A DNA stretch of 28,166 nucleotides from Halalkalibacterium halodurans (GCF_004376175.1 NZ_SNUY01000059.1:1-28166); one strand, 5' to 3'; counted from the stretch's first letter, positions 453 through 27,347 are shown. The notes: a model not told the origin generated them from the letters alone. A program made the numbers and translations.

Positions 453-475
453 AGTTTCAGACTTTCAAAAAATAT

Positions 476-519: not shown

Positions 520-544
520 AGGAATATTCTGATAGCAGGGTTAA

Positions 545-629: not shown

Positions 630-668
630 CAAAAAAACGCTTCTAACAAAATAGGAGGAGTGAAAAAA

Positions 669-2993: not shown

Positions 2994-3019
2994 TTTCATA
3001 AAGTATAGGAGGAATAAAA

Positions 3020-5047: not shown

Positions 5048-5060
5048 GAGGCAGATCGAA

Positions 5061-6226: not shown

Positions 6227-6432
6227 TGATTTATACAATTGAAGAGGTTATGCAGTCTGATAAAGAGATTAGAACTAGTAAGGATATACCAATTGGAGCT
6301 ATTACACAAAAGGGAATCATTGATCTTGGAGAAAACATTTTAGACTATGATATTGATTTTTTTGTACCTATAGATGGTATTAATGGTATAGAGTTTGAGC
6401 CTTGGTATAGAAGGAAAAAAGGAGTTAGCTAA
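6226..6432 (+). CDS. hypothetical small protein
   Basis: 68-aa ORF whose start overlaps the upstream stop. It is the last gene before a terminator. Confidence 0.4.
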   Translation: MIYTIEEVMQSDKEIRTSKDIPIGAITQKGIIDLGENILDYDIDFFVPIDGINGIEFEPWYRRKKGVS

Positions 6433-6449
6433 AAGCTAGCTCTTTTTTT
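6422..6449 (+). terminator. rho-independent terminator
   Basis: GAGTTAGCT (6422-6430) pairs with AGCTAGCTC (6434-6442), 9 bp including one G-U, followed by T7. Confidence 0.7.
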
Positions 6450-6524
6450 ATTAATAGTAAATTTAGTATTAGTGGTAAAAGTAATTAAAATATTATTATT
6501 ACTAAAATATTAGGAGTAATCAAA

Positions 6525-8099
6525 ATGACTAAAAAAGTGAACTTAGCTGAATATAATAAAGAGTTAGAACAAAATTTAGAAGAGATTTTTAAAAATGATC
6601 AGTTTAAGCATTTACTTGATGTAATTGCAACAAGACATAATTACTCACTAGGTAATATGCTTAAGATTATACAGCAAAAACCAGACATTAAAATGATTCG
6701 TAGTTATGATAATTGGAAAAAGATAGGTAGACAAGTCAAGAAAGGCGAGACAGGATTAGAAATTTTAGTCCCTACTTTTAGAAATGAAGAAGTAACGAAG
6801 GTCGATGAAACAGGTTTTCCTTTATACGATGTAAAAGGGCAGCCAATTACAGAAAAAAAGAAAGTATTAAGAGGTTTTGTGACTGGAAAAGTATTTGATA
6901 TATCTCAAACGATAGGAAAAGAAGTGCCTAGTTTAAAACAGTTTATTCAAGAAGAAATGAAAAATGAGAATAACGTAAAGGAACTATATGATAGGTTCTT
7001 AGGGTATTTAAAAGAAAAAAGTAATGAGACAGATCTTCCGGTCAAAGAGGAAGAGCATACAGGAGAAAAGTATGGTGGATATTATGATAAGCGTAATCAT
7101 GAGATTATCATTAATACAGAAACCGCTAAAAGTCCAATGCAAAAATTTAGGGTTTTAATACATGAATACGCACATGCACAGTTACATCATATCGACAGCG
7201 AACTAAAAGATCTTGAGCGAGGACACAAGGAAGCTCAAGCAGATTCTTGCGCCTACATTGTGAACAAATATTTTGGTTTAGATACAGAAGAAAGTACAGT
7301 TGGATACATTGCTAGCTGGGCTAAAGACCTTAGAATAGCTAAAAAGGCAATATCTGAGGTACAAGAAGTAAGTATGACAATTATAGATGAGATCAACGAA
7401 GCTCAAATGGATAGAATTAATCAATTCTATAAAGAACATGATCCATCAAAAGTTAAAGAAGAACTAGAAAAGAAGGGAGTTAAGATTGAACCCGAAACAA
7501 AATTACAATTATTAGATATGAAGAACGGTTTTATTATTTCTGGACAAATAGAGAAAAGAGAAAGCGATGAGGTGGAGTATTTTCGTACAAATAAAAACCG
7601 AATTATTCCCCTTGATGAGTTGATTCAAGATTATGAAGTTATAAATAATCAATTGGAAATAGAAAAAATACTATCTGTTAAAGAAAATTTAAAGAACAGC
7701 AACTTTGAGATTATTGTAAATGGAAACAATAGTAGAAGTCTAAAACGAGACTTTAAAACGTTAAAAGAAGCTACCCAATATATCAATCGTATTGGAATAT
7801 CACAGTCATTGAATCAGGAAAGTATGAGGAAAAAAGAAAATAAAACGCTGAAACCTCAAGAAGAAAAGCTATTATCTAAACGCATTGGTAAGTATTTTGG
7901 CGACCATAATTTTTGTGCTGATTATGAAGGCAATATATCCATCGGATGGCATATTATGAAAAATCCTGATATTAAAACTAAACAAGAGTTCAAACGAGAT
8001 ATACAAAATTTAAAACAACATTTAGTAACCACAAAACGCCTATTAAATGCGATAAATCAAGCCGAAAAAAATTCGATGATGTGTGAGTTAGAAAGGTAA
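6525..8099 (+). CDS. ardC: ArdC-like protein: N-terminal ssDNA-binding (DUF1738-like) plus HExxH metalloprotease, with a long C-terminal extension
   Basis: NWKKIGRQVKKGETGLEILVP block typical of ArdC_N. LIHEYAHAQLHH zinc-protease motif with downstream HKEAQADS. 524 aa. Confidence 0.6.
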   Translation: MTKKVNLAEYNKELEQNLEEIFKNDQFKHLLDVIATRHNYSLGNMLKIIQQKPDIKMIRSYDNWKKIGRQVKKGETGLEILVPTFRNEEVTKVDETGFPLYDVKGQPITEKKKVLRGFVTGKVFDISQTIGKEVPSLKQFIQEEMKNENNVKELYDRFLGYLKEKSNETDLPVKEEEHTGEKYGGYYDKRNHEIIINTETAKSPMQKFRVLIHEYAHAQLHHIDSELKDLERGHKEAQADSCAYIVNKYFGLDTEESTVGYIASWAKDLRIAKKAISEVQEVSMTIIDEINEAQMDRINQFYKEHDPSKVKEELEKKGVKIEPETKLQLLDMKNGFIISGQIEKRESDEVEYFRTNKNRIIPLDELIQDYEVINNQLEIEKILSVKENLKNSNFEIIVNGNNSRSLKRDFKTLKEATQYINRIGISQSLNQESMRKKENKTLKPQEEKLLSKRIGKYFGDHNFCADYEGNISIGWHIMKNPDIKTKQEFKRDIQNLKQHLVTTKRLLNAINQAEKNSMMCELER

Positions 8100-8101
8100 T
8101 C

Positions 8102-8299
8102 TCACTTCTTTTTTAAAAAGAGTACTTGGATTAGTGGTAATACGTAAGCTAAGATAATAAAGATTGCCACTAATCCTACTCCAATAATGAAAAGTATATC
8201 TATCATAAAAGTTCTATATGTCGAAAATCCTCGAAATAGAATAAAGACGAGCAAAAAAGAAGCAAAGACTAAAAAAATTTTCGAGAGTGATAAACGCAT
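8102..8299 (-). CDS. small two-TM membrane protein
   Basis: 65 aa, two hydrophobic segments, C-terminal KKK. GGAAAGGTGG RBS upstream on the minus strand. Convergent with the ardC-like gene. Confidence 0.55.
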   Translation of the reverse strand: MRLSLSKIFLVFASFLLVFILFRGFSTYRTFMIDILFIIGVGLVAIFIILAYVLPLIQVLFLKKK

Positions 8300-8640
8300 A
8301 ATTTGCCACCTTTCCTATTTTTATTATATGTAGTAATTATACTAAAAGTGATATATATAGTAAATAATATAATGCGACTCAAAAAATACTACAATTACTA
8401 CTATTAATAATATCAAAACAAAAACCTGAAGAATCTTTTTCCAATTAGGACAACCTCTATAAAAACAAGGTATAATCAATAATTCAAAGTAATTGTACTC
8501 TTGTTACTAGTACCACTAATTGGAGTATTAATAGTGTTTTTACTAAAAATATCTATGCTGTTACTAATTATAATACTATTAATAAAAATAGTAAAAAACA
8601 AAAAAAGGGTTGATTTACTTTAGTGGACAAGTTAAGCTAG
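8300..8640. repeat. AT-rich array of TAGTA / TACTA words (direct and inverted), probable operator or promoter zone
   Basis: Examples: TAGTAATTATACTA, TACTACAATTACTACTAT, AGTAATTGTACT, TTACTAGTACC, TACTAATTATAATACTATTAATAAAAATAGTA. Similar arrays occur at 6455-6520, 9491-9530, 10660-10735, 11545-11600 and 27601-27640. Confidence 0.6.
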
Positions 8641-9420
8641 TAGTAGCTTAAATAAGTCACCAGATATACATAAAAAAAGCCACTTCTAGAGCGACCAAAC
8701 CATAGAAGTGACTCGTCATCCTGTGCGCCAACACAGGTTAATAGGTAGATTTATTATAACATTATATTGCTTGAAGGTAAATGGTAAATAAAACTATTTT
8801 GTTTATGTGGTTGCTTTTCCTTTACTTTTGAGCAGCTGTGTTATATGCGCTATCTTTTAACCTGTTTAGAAGATAGTGCTTTTTTATGTCTTGGTTAGCT
8901 TATTTGAGCTTGTGGAAGCCAAACCACAGAAGGAACGTTGGGAAACGTGCCGAAAAAATAGACAGGGTATGTCTTGACCATCGCAAACCAAGACTAGGAT
9001 ACTAGTAAATGCTCCCTGTTGCATTAAGTATCTGAATGGTGAAAGCTACCACTAAGTGCTGACGAAGGAGGGGTAGACGCCTTACGGGGCGTGTAGAACT
9101 ATCCGTAAGTAATCCATCATTTCTTTCCTCTGACCTACATAAAAGCTAGGATGAGGATTAAGTTCCCGAAAACGCCAAAGCGGTAAGGGAACAGGAATAG
9201 GATGAAACCACAAGGGCTACTTGCGTGTGTAGGATAGTTAGGACGGGAGTCCTGCGTTAACAGGGGTACACTGCGGATACCTCAGTAATCCGACGGATTA
9301 TGAGTTGATCGGTGTGTAGAACGTCTACTGCTTGCAAAGCTTTTTATTTTTTTAAATTGCTTTGCAGGTAGGCGTTCTGTGCCTTGCGTTGTCCTCGACA
9401 ACCTCTGGATTATGGCAAAA
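8640..9420 (+). ncRNA. candidate large structured non-coding element (RNA, Rep-less origin or ssDNA signal); identity unknown
   Basis: No ORF of 60 aa or more in any frame from 8300 to 9641. G+C by hand count is 31/60 in 9061-9120 versus 12/60 in 8341-8400. Many local hairpins including two GGGA (GNRA) tetraloops, and a 9-bp long-range helix (8888-8896 with 8986-8994). Strand inferred only from the internal + strand terminator. Confidence 0.4.
8847..8886 (+). terminator. rho-independent terminator inside the non-coding island
   Basis: GCGCTATCTT (8847-8856) pairs with AAGATAGTGC (8870-8879), 10 bp including one G-U, followed by T6 (8880-8885). Confidence 0.65.
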
Positions 9421-9665
9421 ATCTAAAACAATAGCAAGTATAAATCTTTAAATAAAAAGATGTTATAAACATACGGTTTTATGTATTTAATAGTATTCGT
9501 AGTAATTGTAGTGTTTGATAGGTTTACTACTTATCTTCAGTTTATGAATAAGAAGATGTAATGATACTCAATCCTGTATTAATTTTGGCTCTTCGGAATA
9601 AGTGGTTGTTACACTCTTGAGAGTATTTTATCAAAATAGTTTTGATTAAAAAGGAGAAGGTTAAA

Positions 9666-9869
9666 TTGTTTCCAGTTAATAAGAATAATATTGAAGTGAA
9701 AAGGTATCGTGAACATTTAAAACAGCAGGTAGAACGGTTCAGAAGTGTAGGAAAGACAGAGGAAGAGATTGTCTATTGGATAGAAAATGTATTAGATAAA
9801 GAAATTTATTTAGGTTACTTAAAACATTTGACTTTAAGTAACCTAAACTATATAATTAAGGTAACTTAA
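9666..9869 (+). CDS. hypothetical small protein
   Basis: AAGGAG at 9651-9656, then a TTG at 9666 in the frame of the 9642..9869 ORF. 67 aa, no family recognised. Confidence 0.4.
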   Translation: MFPVNKNNIEVKRYREHLKQQVERFRSVGKTEEEIVYWIENVLDKEIYLGYLKHLTLSNLNYIIKVT

Positions 9870-9888
9870 ATTATTGGAGGTTTTTTAT

Positions 9889-10467
9889 ATGTTTGTAATC
9901 CGCGGTAAAGACGGTCAAATTGTCACTAGTACAGCATGGGATGAAACGAATGGAGAAGAAATTCAGTACGAAACTTATGAGCAAGCTGAACAAGCATTGG
10001 ACGAATTGGAAAAAAGTTTGCCGAAGGATTTTTTCAAAATCGAAGCTACAAAATGCGAGCGTTGTGGTGGTCATGATGACCTTGCCATTATCCACGTCAA
10101 TGACGAAGCGAAGGCTTATTGTCAAAATTGCCGAGTAGAAATGTTTTCTAAAAAAAGAGCGGTCGGTCGTCCGTCTGGTGGAGTAACAAAAAAGGTATCG
10201 CTAACACTTCCAGAGAAAGAATGGGACTGGCTAGACGAACAGGCGGAAGGAAATCGGTCGCAATATCTTAGACGATTGGTTTGGGAAGCCCAATCAAGCG
10301 AAAATGAATGGAGCAATAACGCTTGTTTGGGTTATGCCATTCTTGGAGCAAAGAAATTAGGCATGAATGACGAGCAGATCGGCAAGCTAGTTCGTGCCAT
10401 TTATAGCGAATTTGATTGGAAAAGTGTCGAGGAAGCCAAAGACACTTACAATCAATCATCATTTTAA
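9889..10467 (+). CDS. zinc-ribbon plus ribbon-helix-helix DNA-binding protein (candidate plasmid regulator)
   Basis: GGAGG RBS with ATG at 9889. CERCGG...CQNC four-Cys ribbon, then KKVSLTLPEKEWDWLDEQAEGNRSQYLRRLV, a typical RHH strand-helix-helix. Terminator follows. Confidence 0.6.
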   Translation: MFVIRGKDGQIVTSTAWDETNGEEIQYETYEQAEQALDELEKSLPKDFFKIEATKCERCGGHDDLAIIHVNDEAKAYCQNCRVEMFSKKRAVGRPSGGVTKKVSLTLPEKEWDWLDEQAEGNRSQYLRRLVWEAQSSENEWSNNACLGYAILGAKKLGMNDEQIGKLVRAIYSEFDWKSVEEAKDTYNQSSF

Positions 10468-10481
10468 CGCTTTATAAGCGT

Positions 10482-10517
10482 CTCTGTTGCCTTTTTAGGC
10501 AACGGGAGGGTTTTTTT
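10482..10517 (+). terminator. rho-independent terminator
   Basis: CTCTGTTGCC pairs with GGCAACGGGAG (imperfect stem), followed by T7 at 10511-10517. Confidence 0.65.
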
Positions 10518-10840
10518 ATAAGGGGCAACCTCTCACAAAGGCGAGAGAGCCCCGTATGGCGTCTGTCAACGGTAAGAGGACTGTAGGGAGCATTAAGGAG
10601 TTGATAGACCCACTTCACCAAGACCCTCTTGGTGTGTCAAACAAGCCATTAGCAAGTAAAGTATTAAAGATATTAAGATTATTACTTTTAGTAATTTTAC
10701 TATTTTTAATACTTGTACTAATAACTTTTTGTTTGTATAATTATTGTTGGGAGGAAGTTTGCTATAGAGGGTTTAGAATATGGTACGTGAAATTTTAAAG
10801 TGACTCATTTTCAATCAGGAAAAAGAGAAGGGGGATTTAA

Positions 10841-11092
10841 ATGCTAAACGAAAGAAGATTATCCGAGATCCAGATTAATTTAAAGAAAACTGAGGTCATT
10901 ATAATTGATTGCGGGTTAGGGGAATTAACAGAGTATGATCGCACGATACTAACAAATAGAACTAAGCGAGATTTTAAATGGTTAGAGCGCGCACTTGAAC
11001 GTTATCCGAGTAAGTCTAATGTCAAATGGAATTTACAAAAAGCCAAATATCTATTATCCGAACTGGAGAGAAGTAGCTGTCAACTACTATAA
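10841..11092 (+). CDS. hypothetical protein
   Basis: 83-aa ORF with an AGGGGGA RBS-like tract 6 nt upstream. No family recognised. Confidence 0.45.
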   Translation: MLNERRLSEIQINLKKTEVIIIDCGLGELTEYDRTILTNRTKRDFKWLERALERYPSKSNVKWNLQKAKYLLSELERSSCQLL

Positions 11093-11125
11093 AATATGAT
11101 CGTACGATAGGAAGGAGTGATAAAA

Positions 11126-11293
11126 GTGGTTACAGAAGAACAAATTTTTCAAATTGAGACACAAGAATTTTTCGGAGAATTTATTGTTAGGAGAGTAAAT
11201 ATCACAGACCTTGAAGTGATTAAGGACGGGATAGTTATCTTTAAAGGTGAAGATTACGAAGTTGCTGAATTCATAAATGAAGAAAGAGGTTAA
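11126..11293 (+). CDS. hypothetical small protein (55 aa, below the ORF-track cutoff)
   Basis: AAGGAG RBS (11112-11117) then GTG at 11126. Reads VVTEEQIFQIETQEFFGEFIVRRVNITDLEVIKDGIVIFKGEDYEVAEFINEERG, stop at 11291-11293. Confidence 0.4.
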   Translation: MVTEEQIFQIETQEFFGEFIVRRVNITDLEVIKDGIVIFKGEDYEVAEFINEERG

Positions 11294-11297
11294 ACGT

Positions 11298-11510
11298 ATG
11301 AAGGTAAAAGAAGTAAAAGTTTGCCAAGCGAAAGATAAAATTTTTAACAACAAGCACGCTTTGATAATTGCTGAAAATGGGATGAAGTTCGTTTATTGGG
11401 TTCCTAAAGCTTCTATTGAAGGAAATATAGAACAATATAAAGAGGTAGCAAAAGAAGATTTCAAGAACGAACAGCAGGTGATAATTGGAAAGATACAATA
11501 CAATTATTGA
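11298..11510 (+). CDS. hypothetical small protein
   Basis: AAAGAGG RBS then ATG at 11298 (internal Met of the 11277..11510 ORF). 70 aa. Confidence 0.45.
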   Translation: MKVKEVKVCQAKDKIFNNKHALIIAENGMKFVYWVPKASIEGNIEQYKEVAKEDFKNEQQVIIGKIQYNY

Positions 11511-12130
11511 TGAATAGTTCGTAAAAATGATTTTGTAGAATTTATATTACTACAAACACTAAATCAAGTATTTTTACTACTTTTAGATTAATTACTATCT
11601 CATTGTGCTATGGGTAATAGGGGAAATTAAAAAATCTACGTACTTTTTGTGTACTTTTTAAGGACTTATTGTGACCTTACATAGTGTTAAACTTATAAGT
11701 GAGAAAGTCTTAAGAGGTATAACAAGAAAATAAGATTTTATAAAAAAGGTGGGGAATATATCCTCACCTTTTGCTTGATTAAAAAAAGAAGGGGAAAGAT
11801 AAAGGTTATGGAAGCTATGTATCTATTTTTTATGTTTGCTATTGCTTTGTTATCAGTTATCTTTTTAGACCTAGAACCAGCAACTGAACGACAAAGCGCA
11901 GTTTCGGTAAAAAATGGAAAAACTAATGTCAAGTTAATTTCAAAAGTTTATCGGGTAAGTCCGAGATAAGTCCAAAATCGGGCATAATCGATATAAATGT
12001 AAAGGCATTTTGTGGATTAAAATAAATCATTTGTAAATGTTTGATCAAATTGCATGAACGGGGCAGTAAAGTGCACTATTTTCTTTTGGTAAAGCTCTTC
12101 ACTTGCAGTCGGAAGGCCATAATCCCCTAA

Positions 12131-12169
12131 GGGGTATTTTTGCATATCCCCCCGAAAGGGTTTATTAAG
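12131..12169 (+). repeat. Tn3-family-type terminal inverted repeat (left)
   Basis: GGGGTATTTTTGCATATCCCCCCGAAAGGGTTTATTAAG has the GGGG...TAAG architecture of Tn3-family IRs. 21 of its first 22 nt match the reverse complement of 22679-22700. Confidence 0.7.
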
Positions 12170-13488: not shown

Positions 13489-13977
13489 TTACATCTGAAC
13501 ACACAGGCGGTTTATGATCTTATCGGCATCTTTGTTGATATCTTCAACGAATTTTCTGACGTTTATTTTGATTTCCTGTACCTTTGAATAAAAGACATTA
13601 TTGATAATGGTTCCCTTCATCCACTTCCAAAGTCCTTCTATAAGGTTCAAATCTGGACTATACGGCGGAAGGAATACCAGTTCAAGTCGACTTTGGTTTT
13701 CTTCTAGGAAAGGCTGAATAAGCTTGGCATGATGGATCCTTGCGTTATCAAGGACCATGACGATTTTTCCTGAAGGATACTTACTAAGGACTTTTTTCAG
13801 GAATTCAAGGAAGACTTCCGCGTCATAGTTTTCTGCTTCGACTACAAAGACTTCCCCTGTCTCGTAATTCAATGTTCCGAGAAGCTTGGCACCTTGATGC
13901 TTCCCGTAGGTAGGGATTAACCTTTGTTTTCCTCTCAGAAACCATGAACACTGAAGGGCCTGGTAATCCCTAATCAT
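13489..13977 (-). CDS. IS630-family transposase, C-terminal DDE part (orfB frame)
   Basis: VMVLDNARIHHAK and LPPYSPDLNLIEGLWKWMK motifs. The same frame is open upstream through LLNEEIDHILFEDES, which carries the first catalytic Asp. Confidence 0.8.
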   Translation of the reverse strand: MIRDYQALQCSWFLRGKQRLIPTYGKHQGAKLLGTLNYETGEVFVVEAENYDAEVFLEFLKKVLSKYPSGKIVMVLDNARIHHAKLIQPFLEENQSRLELVFLPPYSPDLNLIEGLWKWMKGTIINNVFYSKVQEIKINVRKFVEDINKDADKIINRLCVQM

Positions 13978-14002
13978 GGACTCGTCTTCAAACAGGATAT
14001 GG

Positions 14003-14536
14003 TCAATTTCTTCGTTTAAAAGTTTTTTTTAGATCTGGAAATGTCTCGTTTTTGAACGTTTCCTGTTTTGCCTTATCTGCCTTTTTAAGTGTATAGTTCG
14101 GTCTTGTATGGCTTAGGCCAAGGTCTTCAAGAAGGAGGGAAACGCCACGAAGCGTATAGGTTTGTCCCCATTCACGTTGGATGAAGTCTGATATGATGGC
14201 AAGCGTCCAGTTATAATGGTTTTCATATCCTACATCATGTGGTGTTTTATACGCTACCACCTGAACGAGTTCATGTTCCTGGCTCTCAGTTAACTTTCTA
14301 GGCGCACCCGTTGGTAGGCCTCTTTCAAGCCCAGCCAATCCGCCTTTCTTGTAGGCTTTAATATAAGAGGAAATCGTCTTAGTAGAACGAAGAACAATCT
14401 CAGAAATATCCTTATGCTTGAAACCTTTTAGATAGAGGTGGACAACCTGGTAACGTTCGAACATGCGCCTGTCATTGGTATCCTTCATGGCTTCCATGAC
14501 ACAAAGATTTTCCTGTTGAGTAGTCAAGGTACTCAT
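14003..14536 (-). CDS. IS630-family transposase, N-terminal HTH part (orfA frame)
   Basis: Winged-helix/HTH-like N-terminus. It ends 5 codons after an A8 run (T8 on the plus strand, 14023-14030), where a one-nucleotide frame change fuses it to orfB. Confidence 0.8.
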   Translation of the reverse strand: MSTLTTQQENLCVMEAMKDTNDRRMFERYQVVHLYLKGFKHKDISEIVLRSTKTISSYIKAYKKGGLAGLERGLPTGAPRKLTESQEHELVQVVAYKTPHDVGYENHYNWTLAIISDFIQREWGQTYTLRGVSLLLEDLGLSHTRPNYTLKKADKAKQETFKNETFPDLKKTFKRRN

Positions 14537-16132: not shown

Positions 16133-16789
16133 CTAGATGTCACAGCAGGACCCATTGGAAGGGCCTGTTTTTTCGTAATTCTTCCCCATAAGGTTTCCAA
16201 GTTTAAAAGCATCTTCAACAGATAACACTTTTCCCCCTGGATGTTGGTTAAGCCAGTCCTGCGCTGCACTCGGTGAGCTGAAAAAATGGACTTCGTTGCA
16301 GAATGCCGAGCGGACCGCGGACATATCGTCTGGCGTAACGATCGAAACTACTGCCGTGGAAGGTTCCACCTTTACAATGCGTTCTGGTTCTACCGTCAAC
16401 CGTACGGGCTTACCGGTGGAGTGGCAAGGTGACTCGATATGAGCCGAGCGGCCGATGAGTCCCGGAAACATAAGTGTATCAAGGGCGCACCATGCATATA
16501 GTTGCTTCCCATCAACCTTGAAGTGGTGAGGGGTTGGTACCATGGTGAGACCATAACCAACGACACGGCCTTGTTCATCGAGCTCCACGCTGGGTAGAGA
16601 CTGGACAACTTTCCCTACCTCTTCGACAGGTTTTCCAGTCGCTGTCGCGATGTCTTCAATGGTAACTGGCTCCCCCTCTGTCAGCATTTGTAACGTCGGC
16701 CGGAAGATCCACTGCATGGAGCTTCCTCCCTCTCTCTTTTTAGACCGTTGGTCAAGTAAGGTTACGAGTTCCTGAATTTCTTTTTTCAT
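16133..16789 (-). CDS. merB: organomercurial lyase MerB (canonical Cys-x-x-Asp active site)
   Basis: [10 protein letters not shown] and [11 protein letters not shown] signatures. Extra C-terminal tail ...GSCCDI. Higher G+C than its neighbours (33/60 in 16381-16440 versus 25/60 in 17041-17100, hand count). Confidence 0.85.
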
Positions 16790-16981: not shown

Positions 16982-17611
16982 CTATGATAAGAAATTTTTC
17001 AATTCGTTTCCAAAAGAGAGGGCTTGTTCCAAAGTCATGACTTCCCCATGCAATTTTGGATGTTCTTCTTTCCACTTGTTTGCATGCTCAACTGAGCTAA
17101 AATAGTGAATCTGTTTACATGTTCCACCAGCCCATGGAGCCTCTGAATCAAACGGCACCGTCCAGATTACTGTAGAATCGGGAGTTACCTTTTCCAATTT
17201 CCCGTTTCGGACAGTTACCTCAATCGATTCACCTGTGTACGCACAGCTGGAATGTATATCGACATCAGCCTCCAGCGCAGTAGACAGTTCCAATGTAGAA
17301 ATTGCACACCAGGCAAATAAAGTTCGTCCTTCCATTTGGATCTTATTATTAGTCTGTATAATCGATAATCCCAAGGCCCCTACTATTTTTCGATTGTCTC
17401 CACGAACGATCATCTGCCGTTGGGCTAATATTTCTACTACTGACTCAACGGTTTTTGTTTCAATTCCCGTTTGCTTTGCTAAAAAATCTTCGGAAACAGG
17501 CCGCCCCTCACGAATCGAGAAAAATACTGCCCTCAGGATAGGCCTTGTTTCTTTAGGCAGGCTAAATAACAATACATTATAAAATTCTTTGATTTCGGAT
17601 TCATTCTTCAT
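16982..17611 (-). CDS. merB: organomercurial lyase MerB variant with Ser in place of the catalytic Asp (MerB2-type)
   Basis: LFAWCAISTL (Cys-Ala-Ile-Ser) and GGTCKQIHYFSS. The likely start is the ATG at 17611, preceded by GGAGGG, overlapping the merR-family stop by 11 nt. Confidence 0.8.
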   Translation of the reverse strand: MKNESEIKEFYNVLLFSLPKETRPILRAVFFSIREGRPVSEDFLAKQTGIETKTVESVVEILAQRQMIVRGDNRKIVGALGLSIIQTNNKIQMEGRTLFAWCAISTLELSTALEADVDIHSSCAYTGESIEVTVRNGKLEKVTPDSTVIWTVPFDSEAPWAGGTCKQIHYFSSVEHANKWKEEHPKLHGEVMTLEQALSFGNELKNFLS

Positions 17612-18014
17612 TTGTAAATCCCTCCATTTGACTAAATACATCTTCCGGGGAGTCAAGAAACGATGAAACATGTTGACGTAATTTTTGCAGTTCTTCGATA
17701 TGCTCATCGATTTTGGCCAGTTTTTCCTTCAACAATTGTTGAAGACGAGGTTCAACTTCTACAGTATCTTTTACGAAAATCACAGATAAATCTTTCATTT
17801 CCTCTAGGGATACGCCTAACGATTGAAGCTGTTTAATGCAATTGATACAAAATACATGATCTTGGTTATAAACACGGTAGTTACCCTCACTGCGCTTAAT
17901 GGAAGGCAGGATCAATCCCTTTTCTTCATACAAGCGAATCGCTTTTCGAGTGACTCCGGTTTCTTCTGATAGTTGACCGATTGTAAATGAATCCACCTGC
18001 TTGCCCCCTTTCAT
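17601..18014 (-). CDS. MerR-family transcriptional regulator (lacks the canonical C-terminal Hg-binding cysteines)
   Basis: N-terminal HTH FTIGQLSEETGVTRKAIRLYEEKGLI, then a coiled-coil dimerisation helix. The only Cys residues are in FCINC. The true start may be the GTG at 17996, after AAAGGGGG. Confidence 0.75.
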   Translation of the reverse strand: MKGGKQVDSFTIGQLSEETGVTRKAIRLYEEKGLILPSIKRSEGNYRVYNQDHVFCINCIKQLQSLGVSLEEMKDLSVIFVKDTVEVEPRLQQLLKEKLAKIDEHIEELQKLRQHVSSFLDSPEDVFSQMEGFTNEE

Positions 18015-18169
18015 CTGATAAAACTTAGTTAACTAACCAGAGTATACAACCTTAACCTTAGGGGGAGGTCAAGGGGGAAATTAATTATTATAATTATTCC
18101 CGTAAGCAAAGCAAAAATATTTGTAATTAAATATTAAAATATTATAATATATAAAGTGGAGGTGTTAAA
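18015..18169. promoter_or_regulatory. divergent promoter/operator region between the merR-merB-merB and arsR-merE-...-merA operons
   Basis: Minus strand: TTGACC, 20-nt spacer, TATACT (the long spacer is typical of MerR-family promoters), overlapping the dyad CCTTGACC-N9-GGTTAAGG. Plus strand: TTGTAA, 16 nt, TATAAT ahead of the ArsR gene, plus the AT-rich palindrome GGGAA-N17-TTCCC. Confidence 0.5.
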
Positions 18170-18511
18170 ATGGTGAAAGAACAACCTGTTTTGCAGTTGG
18201 AGGATTTACAGCACGAGCTTATAGCGAAGTTTTTTCACGGACTATCGAATCCGGCGAGATTTAAAATCGCTGTGTCCTTGCTCGAATCCGAAAAAAATGT
18301 TAGTCAATTAGTTCATGAGTTAGGAATGAAACAATCTCAAATATCAAACCAGCTTGCTTGTTTGAAATGGTGTGGTTATGTGTCGACACGCCAAGAAGGC
18401 AAATTTATTTATTATCGGATTACAGACGAAAGAATTCGAAACATAATCGAACTGGCCCGCCAGGTCGTCGCCGACAATGCTGAACATATCAATTGTTGTA
18501 CGAGAATCTAA
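18170..18511 (+). CDS. ArsR/SmtB-family metalloregulator (candidate Hg-responsive repressor)
   Basis: The wHTH core (LSNPARFKIAVSLL...NVSQLVHELGMKQSQISNQLACLKWCGYV) is ArsR-like. Cys residues at CLKWC, and a C-terminal vicinal pair in INCCTRI. GGAGGTG RBS. Confidence 0.75.
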   Translation: MVKEQPVLQLEDLQHELIAKFFHGLSNPARFKIAVSLLESEKNVSQLVHELGMKQSQISNQLACLKWCGYVSTRQEGKFIYYRITDERIRNIIELARQVVADNAEHINCCTRI

Positions 18512-18556
18512 GGATTAAGAATTCTTTACTAGAGTTTGATGGAGGGAGGAATTTTC

Positions 18557-18817
18557 TTGAAGGAAAAAATGAAAGGCTGGGGATGGGGAGCTTTAGCATT
18601 CCTAACTTGTCCGTGCCATCTGATTTTAATCATCCCTTTATTGGCAGGTACTGCATTGGGAGCCTATTTAACTACTTATAAAACTGCGGCCTTTATTATT
18701 TTAGGGGCATTATTTGCCTTGTCCCTTTACAGGGTCTTAAGTAAAATGTGGCCCGAAAAAACGGAAGATCAAACCATGGATTGCTGTCTTCCTGATAAGA
18801 AGGAAGTGAAGTCATGA
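18557..18817 (+). CDS. merE: MerE-family small mercury transporter
   Basis: WGALAFLTCPCHLILIIPLLAGTALGAYL closely parallels the Tn21 MerE core (WGALAVLTCPCHLPILAAVLAGTTAGAFL, recalled). GGAGGGAGG then TTG at 18557; an alternative ATG lies at 18569. The C-terminal tail contains DCC. Confidence 0.7.
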   Translation: MKEKMKGWGWGALAFLTCPCHLILIIPLLAGTALGAYLTTYKTAAFIILGALFALSLYRVLSKMWPEKTEDQTMDCCLPDKKEVKS

Positions 18818-19335
18818 AACGCGCTGCTCTTCTTGTTCTTTTACTTGCTGTAATCGGTATTGGTTATTTTGCGGTTACCAAATTGGGGGGATCAGCAGGT
18901 GCGGGCGTTGTGAAAACATCTGAGCAGGCAAGTAAAACAGCTGAAAATCCGACAGTTTCCAATTTGAGTTTTACAGATATCGACGAAAAGGTTGTAAAGG
19001 TCGACCCCAACAAAAAGACCATTCTTCATTTTATGATATCTACCGGGTGTCCATCTTGTGCAGTTATGGCAGGGAACCTAACCAAGTTTGCGGACAATCC
19101 TAATATCGATCTGGTTTCCATTGCCATGGATCCAGTGAATGACACAAAAGAGACGATTCAAGAATTTAGGGAAAACACGCAGGCAAAATGGCCTTTTACC
19201 ATCGATAAGGATCAATCGCTGATACAAAAATTTAACGTTACCTCCATTGATACGGTTATGATTATTTATCAGAATAAGCTTATTTTTAGTGGAGTGTACC
19301 CTTCAATTTCAGAATTGGAGAATGAGCTAAAATGA
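18814..19335 (+). CDS. membrane-anchored thioredoxin-fold (TlpA/ResA-like) protein with CPSC motif
   Basis: N-terminal hydrophobic anchor, FMISTGCPSCAVMAG CxxC motif, thioredoxin-like length. Start overlaps the merE stop (ATGA). Confidence 0.65.
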   Translation: MKRAALLVLLLAVIGIGYFAVTKLGGSAGAGVVKTSEQASKTAENPTVSNLSFTDIDEKVVKVDPNKKTILHFMISTGCPSCAVMAGNLTKFADNPNIDLVSIAMDPVNDTKETIQEFRENTQAKWPFTIDKDQSLIQKFNVTSIDTVMIIYQNKLIFSGVYPSISELENELK

Positions 19336-19991
19336 CGGCAACTGCACTTCTTATCCTTGGAACCGGTATGATGGCGGCATTCAATCCCTGTGGCATTGCG
19401 ATGCTGCCTTCGTACATCGTTTACTTATTAGGCGGACAGAAAAGGAAAGCGTTCGATGGCCTTTGGGCTGGCCTGCTTATGACAACCGGCTTTTTGGTAG
19501 TCTTTCTGATTGCCGGATTAGTTTCCGTTATTTTTGCCGAATTATTAGGGAAAGCTATGCCATGGATTGCGTTTTTCGTTGCGGTTGGCTTTGCTGTTGC
19601 AGGTATCTTCATGATGTCTGGCAAAAATGTATTTTCGTTTCATATCGGTGGTAATTGGGAAATGAAAAAAGGCGCGAAAATATCCCTATTCCTTTATGGA
19701 ATCGCATACGCTCTCGGCTCCCTTGGTTGTACTTTACCATTATTCTCTGTTTTGGTTTTATCCTCATTTGGGGCAAGTGGTTTTCTGAGCGGGATGTTTA
19801 ACTTCCTGTTGTACGCACTTGGGATGGGTTTCGTTGTTACGTTAATTTCACTGGCTTCAACGATTTCCCAACAACTTGTAATGGACTTTGTCCGTTCAAG
19901 CGCCCGGTGGATGGGAAAATTAAGCGGCGCCATTACATTGGCGACAGGGATTTATCTGATTTTTTATTGGTTTCCGAAACTCCCTTTGTAA
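19332..19991 (+). CDS. CcdA/DsbD-family integral membrane thiol-transfer protein (candidate Hg(II) importer)
   Basis: About six TM segments, with Cys in TM1 (FNPCGIAMLP) and TM4 (LGSLGCTLPLF) as in CcdA/DsbD_2. Start overlaps the upstream stop (ATGA). Confidence 0.6.
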   Translation: MTATALLILGTGMMAAFNPCGIAMLPSYIVYLLGGQKRKAFDGLWAGLLMTTGFLVVFLIAGLVSVIFAELLGKAMPWIAFFVAVGFAVAGIFMMSGKNVFSFHIGGNWEMKKGAKISLFLYGIAYALGSLGCTLPLFSVLVLSSFGASGFLSGMFNFLLYALGMGFVVTLISLASTISQQLVMDFVRSSARWMGKLSGAITLATGIYLIFYWFPKLPL

Positions 19992-20026
19992 AGTAATACG
20001 AATTTAAATTGGAAAGGTGAATAATT

Positions 20027-21679
20027 ATGTCTGAAAAAGAGATAAACGTACGAATTCCTACACAGGGAATGACTTGTGCTGGTTGTGAAGATCACGTGAT
20101 CAACGCATTGAACAGTATTGGCGCAAAGAATGTAACGGCAAGTTTTCGCAAAGGAGAAGCAACTTTCCAGGTTGAAGAGAAAAGCGACATTGAAAAAGCA
20201 AAGAAAGCAATCGCGGATACCGGGTACATGCCTGGGGAGGCTGAAATCATTTCCAGTGAAAGAAAACCTGAACTGAGCCAGGAAGGCGACTATGATTTAC
20301 TTATTATTGGATCCGGCGGAGCTGCCTTTTCGGCAGCGATTGAAGCAGTCGGACAAGGTGCTAAAGTAGCCATGGTCGAGCGTGGCACCATAGGCGGAAC
20401 TTGTGTCAATATTGGGTGTGTCCCTTCCAAAACACTGCTTCGTGCCGGGGAAATCAATCATTTGGCTCGCATGAATCCTTTTCTCGGACTAGACATTTCA
20501 GCGGGACCGGTAGATTTAGCCACATTAGTTAACAAAAAGAATGAACTTGTTGACAATATGCGTCAGGAGAAATACGTCAATTTAATCGATGATTACGGTT
20601 TTGACCTTATCCAAGGGGAAGCGAAATTCCTTGATGAGAACACGGTAGAGGTTGATGGGCGGAAGATTACAGCGAAAAGCTTTTTCATTTCAACCGGTGC
20701 TTCTCCACAGGTGCCAGACATTGAAGGTTTAAAAGAAGTCGATTTTCTAACGAGTACTACAGCTCTTGAACTGAAAGAACTTCCGAAACGCCTAGCCGTC
20801 ATTGGTTCTGGATATATTGCGATGGAACTAGGACAGCTATTCCATAATTTGGGATCGGAAGTGACCTTAATCCAGCGAAGTCCACGCATTTTAAAAACAT
20901 ATGACCCTGAAATTTCTGAGGCTGTAACAGAAGCCTTAACGGAACAAGGGATAAGTTTAATTACGGGTGCGACGTATGAGAGAGTAGAAAAAGACGGGGA
21001 TGTCAAACGTATTCACATTGTGGTGAATGGTGAGAAACAGGTAATTGAAGCAGAACAGCTTCTTGTTGCCACTGGCCGAAAGCCAAATACAGCAGCACTT
21101 AACCTTGATGCTGCCGGTGTTAAGGTCGGATCTCGGGAAGAAGTGATCATTGATGAATATCTCCGGACAAGCAATCCGCGCATTTTTGCCGCAGGAGATG
21201 TAACAATGGGACCTCAATTTGTGTATGTAGCAGCCTATGAAGGCGGGGTTGCGGCTAGAAATGCCTTGGCTGTTACGGAACAAAAAATTGATCTTCGTTT
21301 CGTTCCAGGAGTCACGTTTACGAATCCTTCGATTGCTACTGTGGGGCTCACTGAAGAACAAGCGAAAGCAGAAGGATATGAAGTAAAGACGTCCGTTTTA
21401 CCTTTAGATGCTGTACCGAGAGCCCTTGTAAACCGGGAAACAACTGGTGTTTTCAAACTGATCGCTGACGCGAAAACATTAAAAGTGCTTGGCGTTCATA
21501 TTGTGGCCGAAAATGCCGGGGATGTTATTTATGCAGGAACATTGGCAGTTAAATTTGGTTTAACGGTTCAAGATTTACGCGAAAGCCTTGCGCCTTATTT
21601 GACGATGGCGGAAGGATTAAAGTTAGCAGCTCTTACTTTTGATAAGGATGTTTCCAAATTATCCTGTTGTGCAGGGTAA
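20027..21679 (+). CDS. merA: mercuric reductase MerA with one N-terminal HMA (NmerA) domain
   Basis: [13 protein letters not shown] motif, [13 protein letters not shown] site, redox-active [12 protein letters not shown]-terminal LSCCAG Cys pair. 550 aa. Confidence 0.95.
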
Positions 21680-21690: not shown

Positions 21691-21957
21691 GTAACCGCCT
21701 GATAACTTTGAACACTTTTTGCTAAATTGAAGTGAACACTTTACTGGAAGTTGTGGGGACATGTTGTCACTTTACATGGAGCCCCTGCGCGCAAGATCAC
21801 GAGCCATGAAGCCAGATGTACCAAAGAATCTGGCTCAGACGAAGTAGGCTATCATGTCCGCCTCTCCAAATAAAGCGCACGTCTCTACTGGAAAATAGTG
21901 TTCAGTCTTATTCAGCATTTTTAGGTAAGAAAGTGTTCATTTCTACTTGGCGGTTAC
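21691..21957. mobile_element. 267-bp MITE-like element with 9-bp perfect terminal inverted repeats and a 7-bp target-site duplication
   Basis: GTAACCGCC (21691-21699) and GGCGGTTAC (21949-21957). AGATAAT directly flanks both ends (21684-21690 and 21958-21964). Subterminal TGAACACT(T/A)T motifs occur twice at each end. No ORF. Confidence 0.75.
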
Positions 21958-21983: not shown

Positions 21984-22277
21984 ATGGGGATCTTTGATTT
22001 TTTTAAAAAGAATTCAATCGAAAATTCAATCATGAATCCAGGAATTGGAGAAAAGATGGTTGTTTTTAAAGATCTAGGCATGAGTTGAGGAAGTTGTAAA
22101 GCTTCGGTCGAAGCTGAGTTGAAAAAAGTATTGGGTGTTTCTCAATTTAATGTTAATGTGAAAAATCAATCAGCAACGGTCATTTTTGACCCATCGAAAA
22201 CAGATTTGAATTCCTTAAGAGAAGCTATTCACCGGGCTGGTTACACACCAAAGTATGAAATTGTCAAAGATGGATAA
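21984..22277 (+). pseudogene. HMA-domain (MerP/CopZ-like) gene with in-frame TGA replacing the first Cys of GMxCxxC: pseudogene or selenocysteine recoding
   Basis: GAGGTGA RBS with ATG at 21984. Reads ...KMVVFKDLGMS-TGA-GSCKASVEAELKKVLGVSQFNVNVKNQSATVIFDPSKTDLNSLREAIHRAGYTPKYEIVKDG. TGA at 22086-22088. Full HMA fold signature on both sides of the stop. Confidence 0.6.
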
Positions 22278-22662: not shown

Positions 22663-22700
22663 CGGCTGAACCCCTTCGAGGGGATATGTAAAAATACCCC
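22663..22700 (-). repeat. Tn3-family-type terminal inverted repeat (right copy, outer end at 22700)
   Basis: The reverse complement reads GGGGTATTTTTACATATCCCCTCGAAGGGGTTCAGCCGAG. The outer 26 nt or so match the IR at 12131; the inner part has diverged. Confidence 0.65.
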
Positions 22701-22794
22701 TAAGAAGAAATCGATTTAAAACACATTTTTCCTTTGGTTTTGGTAAATAGTAAAAAGGTAAGCAAAAAATATACATAAAGGAGATGTTTAAAAA

Positions 22795-23610: not shown

Positions 23611-23654
23611 TCATTATTTTAGTGTTTTTGATACAATTATATAGGAAGGAGAGG

Positions 23655-24209
23655 ATGTATGTGAAATTTGGTTATATGCGAGTTTCCACAATTGACCAAA
23701 ATTTAGATCGCCAAAAGAAACAGCTTGAAGATTTCGGATGTGAACAAATCTTTTTTGAAAAACTGACTGGTACTAAACGGGATCGCCCGGAGTTAAACCG
23801 CATGTTAGAGTTTCTTCGAAAAGAAGATACGGTTGTCGTAACGGATTTAACTCGTTTATCTCGTTCCACGAAAGATTTGATTGAGATTACAGAGCTAATT
23901 TCACAAAAGGGAGCGCATTTAAAAAGTTTAAAGGAGTCCTGGCTTGATACAACAACAGCACATGGAAAAATGTTGTTTACCATTTTTGCTGGAATTGCAC
24001 AGTTTGAGCGAGATCTTACCTCTGAACGAACAAAGGAAGGAATTTTAGCTGCAAGGAAGCGAGGAAAACTTCCTGGAAGACCAAAAGCTGACGAGGAAAA
24101 AATTAAGTATGCTTTATATCTAATGGAACAAGGGATGAGCCGGACTGATGCTGCTGAAAAGGCTGGTATCTCTCGTATGACTCTGTACCGTAAGATACAA
24201 AAAAAATAA
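23655..24209 (+). CDS. tnpR: serine recombinase / Tn3-family resolvase
   Basis: FGYMRVSTIDQNLDRQ catalytic-Ser motif, and the C-terminal HTH GMSRTDAAEKAGISRMTLYRKI. GGAAGGAGAGG RBS then ATG at 23655. Confidence 0.9.
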   Translation: MYVKFGYMRVSTIDQNLDRQKKQLEDFGCEQIFFEKLTGTKRDRPELNRMLEFLRKEDTVVVTDLTRLSRSTKDLIEITELISQKGAHLKSLKESWLDTTTAHGKMLFTIFAGIAQFERDLTSERTKEGILAARKRGKLPGRPKADEEKIKYALYLMEQGMSRTDAAEKAGISRMTLYRKIQKK

Positions 24210-24296
24210 TGCAACTAACTAGTAACCAATGGACCAAGAATTACTTGTTAATGCTTACAGCCTACTTAAATCGTGATTTCAATTGAGAGGTACAAA

Positions 24297-27248
24297 ATGA
24301 AAAAACAATGGGAATTAGATGAACTAATCGGTCATTTTACATTAATCGAACCTGAAAAAAAGTTGATTGAAAGTAAGTATGTTAATTCGCAACTGGGCTT
24401 TGCTGTAATAATGAAATTTTTTCAGCATGAAGCCAGATTTCCAGCCAAGTCTAGTGATATTCCAAAAGTAATAATCGATTTTATTGCAAAACAGCTTAAA
24501 GTACATCCGGCGATGTTTGATCTATATTCTTGGAGTTCTCGTACCTTGACGAATCATCGAAATGAAATCCGGAAATTATATGGTTTTCGTGAAGTTACAA
24601 TTCAAGATGAGAAAGAGATAACAACCTGGTTACAGGGGAAGGTGTTGGACTATGCTCATGAGTTTGAACCTTTAAAGGAGACTGTCTACTCTGAATTTAG
24701 ACGTAAAAAAATAGAGCCACTTACTGATGACCAGATTGAAAGAGTGGTTAAATCAGCAGTTTGGAATCAGGAACAGCAATTCTACAAAGAAACTTACCAA
24801 AAATTATCTCCTATTACCCTATCCCGTATGGATGCTCTTATGGAGTCATGGGTTGACATGGAAAACGATGAAACAGGCGAAGAGCAAGAAGATAAAAACA
24901 AAATTACTTTTCGCAAGATTACACTAGGTCCAGGACGAGTTAGCAAAGATACATTGCTGTTAGAAATTAATAAGTGGAAAACCTTAAATATGTTGGAACT
25001 CCCTGATAACCTATTTAGCTTAATTCCACCGAAAGTAATAAAAAAATATCGATTAAGAGCTATATCGGAAGAGAAAAGAGAGCTACGTAGGCATCAACCA
25101 GCCATACGCTATACTTTGCTAGCAGCACTTTTTTGGTCAAGAATCAAGGAGATAACGGATAGTTTAATCGAAATTTTAATCACTCTTATCCATAAGATTG
25201 ACGGCCGTGCGGAGAAAAAGGTTAAGAAAGACCTTATTCTAGAAGTAAAAAAAGTACATGGCAAAAATGACATTCTAATCTCATTATTAGAGGCTGCGCT
25301 CGAAAATCCAAATGGAATTGTAAAAGATATTTTATTTCCTTTAGTTGATATGGACACCCTAAAGAATATTATTAAAGAATTGAAATATAAGAACTCGGTT
25401 TATCAAGAAAAAGTATATTGGAAAATCCGAAGCTCCTATAGTAGTTCCTATCGGACAGCAGTAACAGAGTTACTGAAAACGTTAGATTTTCGTTCCAACA
25501 ATCAGAATCATCAGCCTCTTATTAAAGCCATTGAGTTGATTCGTAAATACTCGGGTACTACTCAAATTAATTATGCTCACGATGACGATGTTCCTACTGG
25601 AAGAGACATAATTCCTGCTAAATGGCGAGAACATGTCATAGAAAAAGATTCTAAAGGCAATGAGAAAATTAACCGAATGAATTATGAGATTTGTGTTCTT
25701 CATGCTCTTCGAGATAAGTTAAAGTGCCGAGAAATTTGGGTGGTCGTTGCAGATCGTTACCGAAATCCAGATGATCATCTCCCACCTGACTTTGTTAAAA
25801 ATCGAGAAGAACACTATGAAGCTCTTAAGTTACCAATTAATGTGGATGAAAAGATTACGGAGTTACAACAGGAAATGCATGATAAGCTATCGATGCTAGA
25901 TCAAGGAATACCTAGAAATAAAAAAGTATCCATTTCTGAATATAAAGGTGGATGGATTTCTCTAGCAAAGGACGATATACAGCCTGAACCCAAACGGTTA
26001 GCTTATCTCAAACAAGAGATTGCAAATCGATGGTCGATGACTAATCTTATTGATATTTTAAAAGAAACAGATTTACGGGTAGGGTTTTCGGATCTCTTTC
26101 AAACATTGGCTACTCATGAACGGTTAGATCGAAAAACCATTCAAAAACGCTTGCTGCTTTGTCTTTTCGGATTAGGAACAAACACAGGTCTAAAAAGGGT
26201 TGCTGCAGGGAATACAGATGTTACCTATAAAGATTTGTTATATATTAAGCGAAAATACATTTACAAAGATAACTTAAAGGCAGCCAATGAACATGTGGTC
26301 AATGCCATTTTAGCAGATCGTTTAGAAGAGGTCTGGGGGAAAGGAACAACCTCTTGTGCATCTGATTCCACAAGAGTTGTAGCATATGATCAAAATTTAA
26401 GAACTCAATGGTTCCCACGTTATCGAGGCCCTGGCGTCTCTGTTTACTGGCATGTAGAGGAAAAATCGATGTGTATACACTCACAAGTAAATACACCGAA
26501 TTCTTCTGAAGTAGCTGCTATGCTTCATGGATTATTAAATCACAACACCAATAAAGAAATTGAAAAAAACTTTGTTGATACACATGGACAAAGTGAAGTA
26601 GGTTTTGCATTTTGTCACTTGCTCGGTTTCAAATTAATGCCACGTCTCAAAAACATCAGTTCACAGAAACTGTATAAACCTAATACTGGAGTCAGTTTTC
26701 CTCATTTACAGCCTGTTCTCGCACAAAAAACAATTGATTGGGAATTGATTCGTCAACAGTTTGATGAAATGGTGAAATATGCAACTGCTTTACGATTAAG
26801 CGTAGCAGACACAGAATCTATCTTAAAGCAATTTTCGAAAAACACCTCTCATCCTACCTATAAAGCATTACAAGAATTAGGAAAAGCGTTGAGAACTATC
26901 TTTTTATGTGAATATCTGCATTTTGAAGAAATACGTAGAGAAATCCATGCTGGTTTAAATGTAGTGGAAAACTGGCATTCAGCCAGTGATTTCGTTTTTT
27001 ATGGAAAAGGTGGAGAGATCCAAAAGAATCAACCAGAAGAACAAGAAATTGCTATCCTTAGTCTCCACTTACTGCAAAATTGTTTAGTCTACATTAATAC
27101 TCTTAAAATTCAACATGTACTGAAAGAAAAAGAATGGATCAATCAGATGACAGCAGAAGACTATCGCGCTCTCACTCCTCTAATTTACAATCATATCAAT
27201 CCATATGGAGAATTTCGAATGGATCTAGATAAAAGACTTGCATTATAA
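24297..27248 (+). CDS. tnpA: Tn3-family DDE transposase
   Basis: About 983 aa. N-terminal DUF4158-like region ([12 protein letters not shown]...[16 protein letters not shown]). C-terminal Tn3-type catalytic region (ASDSTRV...; [27 protein letters not shown]; INPYGEF). GAGAGG RBS then ATG at 24297. Confidence 0.9.
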
Positions 27249-27309
27249 TAAACACTTTAAAACGAATGAACCGATTCATATAGAGTTGGTTCATTTACCA
27301 TTTTTTTCC

Positions 27310-27347
27310 GAAATTGCACTTCGTCGTTCAGTTGCTGGTTCTACCCC
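27310..27347 (-). repeat. candidate terminal IR of the tnpA-bearing transposon (outer end at 27347)
   Basis: The reverse complement begins GGGGTAGAACCAGCA..., resembling the recalled Tn4430-type IR start GGGGTACCGCCAGCA. It lies about 100 bp past the tnpA stop. No mate was found in the window, so this is tentative. Confidence 0.35.

Follow-up and report, generated by a model that had tools for sequence, protein, structure and literature searches.

We describe here a mercury-resistance (mer) operon within a 28,166-nt stretch of DNA from Halalkalibacterium halodurans (GCF_004376175.1, NZ_SNUY01000059.1:1-28166; this whole stretch is hereafter called the window), made up of the five co-oriented genes arsR-merE-trx-ccdA-merA (Table 1). 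The locus is a true mercury-resistance operon carried by a transposon. Its Gram-positive design has been little studied: a membrane-anchored thioredoxin-like protein (Trx) and a six-transmembrane (six-TM) protein of the CcdA family form an added module beside the small mercury importer MerE, rather than a straight substitute for MerT and MerP. The design is already present in mer operons of Staphylococcus, Alicyclobacillus and actinobacteria, and is thus a variant and not a new system. The analysis establishes the identities of the genes, their conserved cysteines, their conserved linkage, and an Asp-for-Pro signature in the thioredoxin-like protein; new here are the Asp or Glu that replaces the cis-proline in mer-linked Trx proteins, the unchanged core motifs of CcdA, and the CmtR-type cysteine ligands of the ArsR regulator.

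The coordinates, gene order and cysteine motifs given by an earlier reading made from the sequence alone (the sequence-only reading) all hold when the open reading frames (ORFs) are read again, as does the coupling it had claimed for merE, trx and ccdA: ATGA start/stop overlaps are present both at 18814-18817 (merE/trx) and at 19332-19335 (trx/ccdA). The window proteins were scanned against Pfam and NCBIfam with curated cut-offs, which confirmed four of the five products (ArsR, MerE, thioredoxin and MerA), the HTH_5, MerE and Redoxin models suggested in that reading being passed by the regulator, MerE and the thioredoxin, respectively; the ccdA-like product is the exception. None of the five operon products matched the MerT, MerP, MerC or MerF models of either collection. 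The claimed absence of these genes therefore stands for the operon products, with the qualification for merP that a CopZ/MerP-like HMA gene lies further downstream. In the same way, the operon itself is not headed by a MerR-type gene, as had been stated, but the divergent MerR-family gene merR2, which heads merB2-merB1, is only 155 bp away.

The thioredoxin-like protein matches the Pfam Redoxin model with 33.9 bits (cut-off 26.6), and the AhpC-TSA and Thioredoxin_8 models as well. Its AlphaFold2 model has a predicted local distance difference test score (pLDDT) of about 95 over residues 50-173, and the top Foldseek matches are 3ha9, ResA and StoA, the latter two at E 1e-9. The cysteines of its CPSC motif are Cys79 and Cys82, and the CxxC is invariant among homologues. 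The protein thus has the thioredoxin fold, the CxxC and the N-terminal anchor of TlpA/ResA/StoA-type proteins, but departs from them in the cis-proline loop: in a profile alignment, Asp146 ('IDTV' in the window, 'LDTV' in the alignment) faces the cis-proline of ResA ('LPTT') and StoA ('IPTS').

We surveyed this position in every thioredoxin-like ORF adjoining a CcdA gene, over 83 loci. The residue is Asp or Glu in 21 of the 22 merA-linked Trx proteins and Gln in the last one, across Bacillota, Chloroflexota and Actinomycetota (Rhodococcus); the cis-proline is kept in all Trx proteins (35/35) of loci without merA. The sole acidic Trx without merA within 6 kb is that of Filobacillus, where MerP-like and HMA genes adjoin. 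Among the nearest Trx cluster representatives in a library of 1.8 billion proteins, 103 of 150 carry an acidic residue (Asp/Glu) here, including 45 of the top 50, and roughly 100 clusters or more (50% identity) bear the signature. One of its bearers is 3ha9, an uncharacterised structural-genomics protein of Aeropyrum pernix and the closest solved relative of the window Trx (29% identity), which combines a CPSC motif with Asp at the cis-proline position ('IDY'). From these features the window protein appears to be the specialised member of the Trx/CcdA module, and the loss of the cis-proline loop, with which ordinary thiol-disulfide oxidoreductases hold their protein substrates, suggests that it is no general protein-disulfide reductase. 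We tentatively propose, while considering it somewhat more likely to be wrong than right in this general form, that the mer-linked Trx proteins make up a distinct, unnamed subfamily (CxxC, Asp/Glu for cis-proline) that would serve as the extracytoplasmic Hg(II) receptor in Gram-positives and archaea; functionally it would correspond to MerP, with CcdA or other cysteine-pair membrane partners keeping it reduced.

The trx gene itself varies in state among relatives of the operon. It is frameshifted on a Paenibacillus urinalis plasmid (L001:7944-8512), is interrupted by a stop at an invariant Trp codon in Alicyclobacillus hesperidum DSM 12489 (L005:5528-6004), and is missing from the arsR-ccdA interval of A. 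macrosporangiidus (L015:5937-6001).

The partner of Trx, the 219-aa ccdA-like product, gave no match to any Pfam or NCBIfam model, even at E <= 10. Its membership of the CcdA/DsbD family, which the sequence-only reading had claimed, finds no direct support there and is upheld by another route. A family profile built from 24 homologues matches 5vkv, a solved CcdA from Thermus, over its full length (residues 1-211; E 1e-11), with both cysteines aligned; the homologues carry PF02683, the close ones scoring 22-30 bits around the cut-off of 27.1; and the AlphaFold2 model (pLDDT 76) shows six long helices, with 5vkv as the only confident Foldseek match (probability 1.0, TM-score 0.48). By profile, PF02683-bearing homologues and structural match, the product is a six-TM CcdA-family protein. 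Cys20 (NPCG, in TM1) and Cys133 (LGCTLP, in TM4) are invariant in the 24 homologues, and a comparison of mer-linked with other members revealed no mer-specific residues in the CcdA core or around the cysteines beyond clade effects; the protein is an ordinary-looking member of its subfamily. The mer-linked CcdA appears to be an extra copy dedicated to the operon, since three host genomes of such copies keep 2-3 further CcdA paralogues that score better against Pfam. Metagenomic relatives of the window CcdA were found at 94% and 74% identity.

Relatives of the operon were collected by running the CcdA profile against prokaryotic genomes, one for each species, which gave 80 loci that were then searched with the other window proteins. 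The order arsR-trx-ccdA-merA recurs in 14 loci of Alicyclobacillaceae, with identities to the window of 58-70% for ArsR, 28-45% for Trx, 60-68% for CcdA and 52-74% for MerA. This cassette (A. mengziensis, A. hesperidum, A. tolerans) shares the four genes, their order and the ArsR cysteine triad with the window; it differs in being chromosomal and in having a LCCGLP...CC protein upstream of arsR, instead of a MerE downstream of it. Cohnella phaseoli and the P. urinalis plasmid have a merE gene between arsR and trx; on the plasmid, a Tn3-family transposase lies nearby and the identities reach 94% for ArsR, 90% for MerE, 70% for the frameshifted Trx, 87% for CcdA and 92% for MerA. An operon 84-94% identical to that of the window is already in RefSeq. 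In Virgibacillus and Radiobacillus the order is trx-ccdA-arsR...merA, accompanied by a MerP-like anchored protein and a second protein with six helices. Besides regulators of both the MerR and the ArsR family, the cluster of Virgibacillus sp. (L018:4832-11059) encodes a lipoprotein-type Trx, a CcdA and the membrane-anchored MerP-like protein; its second six-helix protein is DsbD_2-like, its MerA has two NmerA domains, and one further gene is prolipoprotein diacylglyceryl transferase-like.

The module can also be recognised in better-known systems. The pI258-type operon of S. aureus (pTW20_1) consists of merR, a TlpA-family ORF, a CcdA ORF, merT, merA and merB. Like the window, it has tlpA overlapping and followed by ccdA upstream of merA within the mer unit, a small cysteine-pair Hg transporter, and a Trx with CPSC and an acidic residue at the cis-proline position (identities to the window 40% for CcdA and 70% for MerA). 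It differs in its MerR regulator (ArsR in the window), its MerT (MerE in the window) and the position of merB, which lies downstream rather than in a divergent operon. We found the arrangement merR-tlpA-ccdA-merT-merA on 40 Staphylococcus plasmids. The tlpA and ccdA genes of this type are presumably the unnamed ORF3 and ORF4 of the original description of 1987. A 3.8-kb contig binned as an 'uncultured Francisella' metagenome-assembled genome (CALTZA010000025.1, L021) also carries a merR-tlpA-ccdA segment that is all but identical to pI258-type plasmids of S. aureus; the contig is probably mis-binned or a contaminant.

More distantly, genes for CcdA and TlpA adjoin merA-merB on Rhodococcus pCP2, and the Trx there also has Asp at the cis-proline position; this locus differs from the window by its order ccdA-tlpA, the length of its CcdA (322 aa), the lack of MerE and identities of about 30%. 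With the arrangement ccdA-tlpA-x-merA-merB of pCP2, and with a table in a 2025 review that lists TrxA- and CcdA-domain 'mercury transporters' in actinomycetes, by annotation only, the occurrence of such pairs in actinobacterial mer loci, which the sequence-only reading had mentioned, proved correct. In the extracytoplasmic reducing pathway of Gram-positives, CcdA with ResA, StoA or Etrx likewise combines a six-TM two-cysteine protein and an anchored CxxC thioredoxin fold; in contrast to that pathway, the window Trx lacks the cis-proline, the pair sits inside a mer operon, its CcdA is too divergent for the Pfam and NCBIfam models, and the hosts keep separate housekeeping CcdAs.

MerE is the small transporter of the window operon. 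It matches PF05052 with 56.3 bits (cut-off 22.8) and scores 62.3 against the NCBIfam MerE equivalog NF010310, under its cut-off of 80. By hydropathy, the 93-aa form has its TM segments at residues 19-37 and 50-68, with LTCPCH in the first of them, and the C-terminal tail bears a MerF-like vicinal cysteine pair (DCC) that is atypical for MerE. The start is most likely the TTG at 18557, which gives 86 aa, because this form is the one recorded in the protein collection and the TTG is preceded by GGAGGGAGG.

The proposal that Trx and CcdA stand in place of MerT/MerP was not borne out, since a small cysteine-pair transporter or an anchored metal-binding protein accompanies them in nearly every mer-linked locus inspected: MerE in the window, MerT in the pI258 type, a two-TM LCCGLP...CC protein in Alicyclobacillus, and the anchored MerP-like protein with a second six-TM protein in Virgibacillus. 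The pair is therefore an added module. The Alicyclobacillaceae mer operons open with a two-helix protein of 91-105 aa directly upstream of arsR (L005:4880-5167, L003:4859-5134, with equivalents in L007-L016), which has LCCGLP in helix 1 and, in most cases, a cysteine pair near the C-terminus. It lies at or under the Pfam cut-offs for MerE and MerT (22.0 against 22.8 for MerE), and probably represents an unnamed branch within the MerE/MerF superfamily.

The regulator belongs to the ArsR family (HTH_5, PF01022, 42.8 bits against a cut-off of 22; NF033788, 77.5 against 55), a type of regulation also described for Streptomyces lividans-type mer loci (PMC3466566). Its cysteines are arranged as C64-x3-C68 (CLKWC) and C108-C109 near the C-terminus; of these, Cys108 is variable, whereas Cys64, Cys68 and Cys109 recur in every one of the 20 full-length mer-linked homologues that were aligned. 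Among solved proteins, the best match to the regulator is CmtR (2jsc; Rv1994c), a repressor of the ArsR/SmtB family with which M. tuberculosis senses Cd/Pb. The CmtR ligands Cys57 and Cys61 line up with Cys64 and Cys68, so that both proteins have a C-x3-C in the region of the recognition helix, and the C-terminal cysteine is equally distant. The window ArsR scores 61.9 against the CmtR equivalog NF047906, whose cut-off is 150; it is predicted to have a CmtR-like (alpha4C-like) thiolate site, yet is no CmtR equivalog. In difference to CmtR, Hg(II) would be the expected effector, because the gene is merA-linked, and we presume that ArsR is an Hg(II)-released repressor of the operon. A sigma-A-like promoter lies ahead of arsR with a palindrome, the candidate ArsR operator, in its spacer; the promoter and the AATATT-N2-AATATT palindrome are also found upstream of arsR in both closest relatives, the P. 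urinalis plasmid and Cohnella. A second strong promoter-like site on the minus strand overlaps the arsR promoter and palindromes, so that ArsR could also influence the transcription that runs leftward to merR2.

A thiol-relay role for Trx and CcdA seems to us the most reasonable, and the evidence fits a division of labour in which MerE is the importer, MerA the reductase, and Trx/CcdA the added extracytoplasmic thiol module. More specifically, Trx may be a MerP-like Hg(II) receptor that is held in the dithiol state by electrons delivered via CcdA and that feeds MerE and then MerA, a scheme to which we give an even chance. In the absence of mercury, a CmtR-like ArsR dimer would sit on the palindrome in the promoter spacer; binding of Hg(II) by Cys64 and Cys68 together with Cys109 of the partner subunit would release it. 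Outside the membrane, the anchored Trx would capture Hg(II) on its CPSC dithiol in the fashion of MerP, and CcdA would relay electrons from the cytoplasm so that this dithiol, and perhaps the thiols of MerE, are kept reduced in the oxidising exterior. The metal would pass from Trx to the CPC of MerE and on to the CC in the cytoplasmic C-terminal tail of MerE; NmerA would receive it next and hand it to the C-terminal CC and active site of MerA, where Hg(II) would be reduced to Hg(0). We infer every one of these transfer steps, and likewise the operator.

Several observations weigh against this scheme. The association of Asp-for-Pro with merA requires only about three changes on the tree and has no independent statistical weight; an independent-contrast test of the signature against merA linkage was accordingly not significant, with too few transitions (1-3). 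The trx gene appears damaged or missing in three to four close relatives, and may therefore be dispensable, or else the assemblies of these relatives contain errors. Low-complexity palindromes often occur in AT-rich DNA, and the candidate operator is of that composition. We found no functional study of the Trx/CcdA pair of any mer operon in the literature searched. Finally, a CcdA that carries electrons and one that carries Hg(II) are indistinguishable at the sequence level, which leads to a different assignment of roles. In CcdA, both cysteines become alternately exposed on either side of the membrane. CcdA itself might thus be the Hg(II) importer, with Cys20 and Cys133 carrying the metal as a dithiolate in place of a disulfide and Trx as its MerP-like donor. 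MerE would then work in parallel, for instance on organomercurials bound for the MerB enzymes encoded nearby. The names 'MerT/MerP' and 'mercury transporter' that such genes bear in actinomycetes imply this reading. The invariance of both cysteines, the tight gene order and translational coupling, the status of the gene as an extra paralogue beside housekeeping CcdAs, the annotation of CcdA-domain proteins as mercury transporters in actinomycete mer loci, and the lack of MerE in certain distant mer-linked loci (Rhodococcus pCP2, for instance, showed just a small HMA-like gene) are all in line with a CcdA importer. Yet a dedicated small Mer-type transporter is found in almost every mer-linked locus, the CcdA core shows no mer-specific change, and the 'transporter' names are annotations and not tests; we regard a CcdA importer as unlikely, if worth keeping in mind. 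The pair might also be purely protective, keeping extracytoplasmic thiols (including the cysteine pairs of MerE) reduced or stripping them of Hg(II), and so limiting harm to the cell surface, without feeding MerA. CcdA and TlpA-like proteins form a general extracytoplasmic reducing pathway (ResA, StoA, Etrx), precisely the proteins that fold and sequence searches return, and the apparent loss of trx in some relatives that keep the rest of the operon would be compatible with such a role. However, the lost substrate-binding loop speaks against a general protein-disulfide reductase, and the linkage is strictly to merA and not to other stress genes, which makes a purely protective module improbable in our view.

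The origin of the operon bears on a further alternative, put forward in the sequence-only reading, according to which it would be an inter-phylum mosaic of an actinobacterial ArsR/CcdA-type module joined to MerE on a Bacillus-type transposon. Actinobacterial mer loci do hold CcdA and TlpA genes, and the merR2-merB module next to the cassette belongs to the Bacillus RC607 type. But all four cassette genes have their nearest relatives in Bacillota, and the identities of the cassette genes run in parallel. In a maximum-likelihood tree of 84 CcdA homologues, the window falls into a 17-row clade with full support (Shimodaira-Hasegawa-like approximate likelihood ratio test, SH-aLRT, 100), whose members are all merA-linked (Alicyclobacillaceae, Cohnella and the Paenibacillus plasmid); the sister clade consists of Bacillaceae and Staphylococcus copies, and mer-linked copies from actinobacteria fall in the opposite half of the tree, with identities to the window of 32% for CcdA and 33% for ArsR. 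MerE in turn accompanies the cassette in both Cohnella and P. urinalis, and gave no match on B. cereus plasmids. A mosaic across phyla is thus highly improbable, and we rejected an actinobacterial origin of the cassette, as well as an origin of the window MerE from elements of the RC607/TnMERI1 type. The sole real mosaic junction is the one between the cassette and the RC607-type merR2-merB module, the DNA of merR2-merB2-merB1 being 83-89% identical to a module on B. cereus and Enterococcus plasmids.

MerA is a mercuric reductase (TIGR02053, 641.7 bits against a cut-off of 454), with one N-terminal HMA domain (NmerA) and Pyr_redox domains. A miniature inverted-repeat transposable element (MITE)-like insertion separates merA from the downstream HMA gene. 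Before this insertion the spacing was about 30 nt, and the HMA gene was probably the sixth gene of the operon. Its product scores 32 against a MerP cut-off of 92.55; it is predicted to be cytoplasmic and is not a true MerP, because a signal peptide is absent. As read from its genes, the operon is thus predicted to be a functional Hg(II) detoxification unit, arsR-merE-trx-ccdA-merA, formerly followed by the HMA gene. It rides a Tn3-family transposon of a low-GC Bacillota plasmid, whose backbone (positions 1-11800) has no close relative in PLSDB.

Table 1. Genes, control sites and mobile-element features of the window (positions counted from its first nucleotide).
Feature	Position	Strand	Remarks
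arsR	18170-18511	+	113 aa; CLKWC, C-terminal CC
merE	18557-18817 (alternative upstream start 18536)	+	86 aa (or 93 aa); LTCPCH
trx (TlpA/ResA/StoA-like thioredoxin fold)	18814-19335	+	173 aa; N-terminal hydrophobic anchor; CPSC
ccdA-like	19332-19991	+	219 aa; hydrophobic; Cys20, Cys133
merA	20027-21679	+	550 aa; GMTCAGC, CVNIGC, C-terminal CCAG
arsR-merA promoter-like site TTGTAA-16 nt-TATAAT	18121-18148	+	sigma-A-like; 10/12 matches in promoter scan
Palindrome AATATT-AA-AATATT	18130-18143		inside spacer of plus-strand promoter; read directly; candidate ArsR operator
Second strong promoter-like site TTAACA-16-TATAAT	18141-18168	-	11/12 matches; overlaps arsR promoter and palindromes
merR2 MerR-type promoter TTGACC-20 nt-TATACT	18041-18072	-	read from sequence
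merR2	17601-18014	-	MerR family (Pfam MerR_1); divergent from arsR; heads merB2-merB1
merB2	16982-17611	-	Pfam MerB
merB1	16133-16789	-	Pfam MerB
MITE-like insertion	21691-21957		267 bp; termini GTAACCGCC/GGCGGTTAC; 7-bp AGATAAT target duplication; between merA and HMA gene
HMA (CopZ/MerP-like) gene	21984-22277	+	in-frame TGA at first metal Cys (GMSUGSC, TGA=U); Pfam HMA over C-terminal part
Inner inverted repeats	12127-12162 / 22669-22704		36 nt; enclose mer cargo only
Outer inverted repeats	11872-11921 / 27294-27343		50 nt; enclose mer region and tnpR-tnpA
tnpR and tnpA	23622-27248		Tn3-family transposon
IS630-like element	13489-14536	-	HTH and DDE_3 ORFs split in two frames; between transposon left end and merB operon
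Bacillus-plasmid RNA (Rfam RF01691)	10562-10617	+	52.6 bits; plasmid backbone

Since the module rides a Tn3-family transposon, on which it travels together with MerE and two MerB genes, the Trx/CcdA pair is spreading horizontally among Bacillota. The tally in mer gene surveys covers MerT, P, C, F, E, H and G along with the MerR and ArsR regulators; the large surveys that we consulted mention ArsR, and not Trx/CcdA. The pair is nonetheless part of the classic pI258 operon, of actinobacterial loci and of a whole family of operons in Alicyclobacillaceae. The gain from the window locus alone is modest, and the part of most value is the Trx subfamily with Asp for cis-proline. This signature offers a simple, testable handle on the role of Trx, as well as a marker for finding such genes in genomes. 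If the proposed role is true, the subfamily would be an unrecognised and widespread component of mercury uptake that is missing from current surveys of mer genes.

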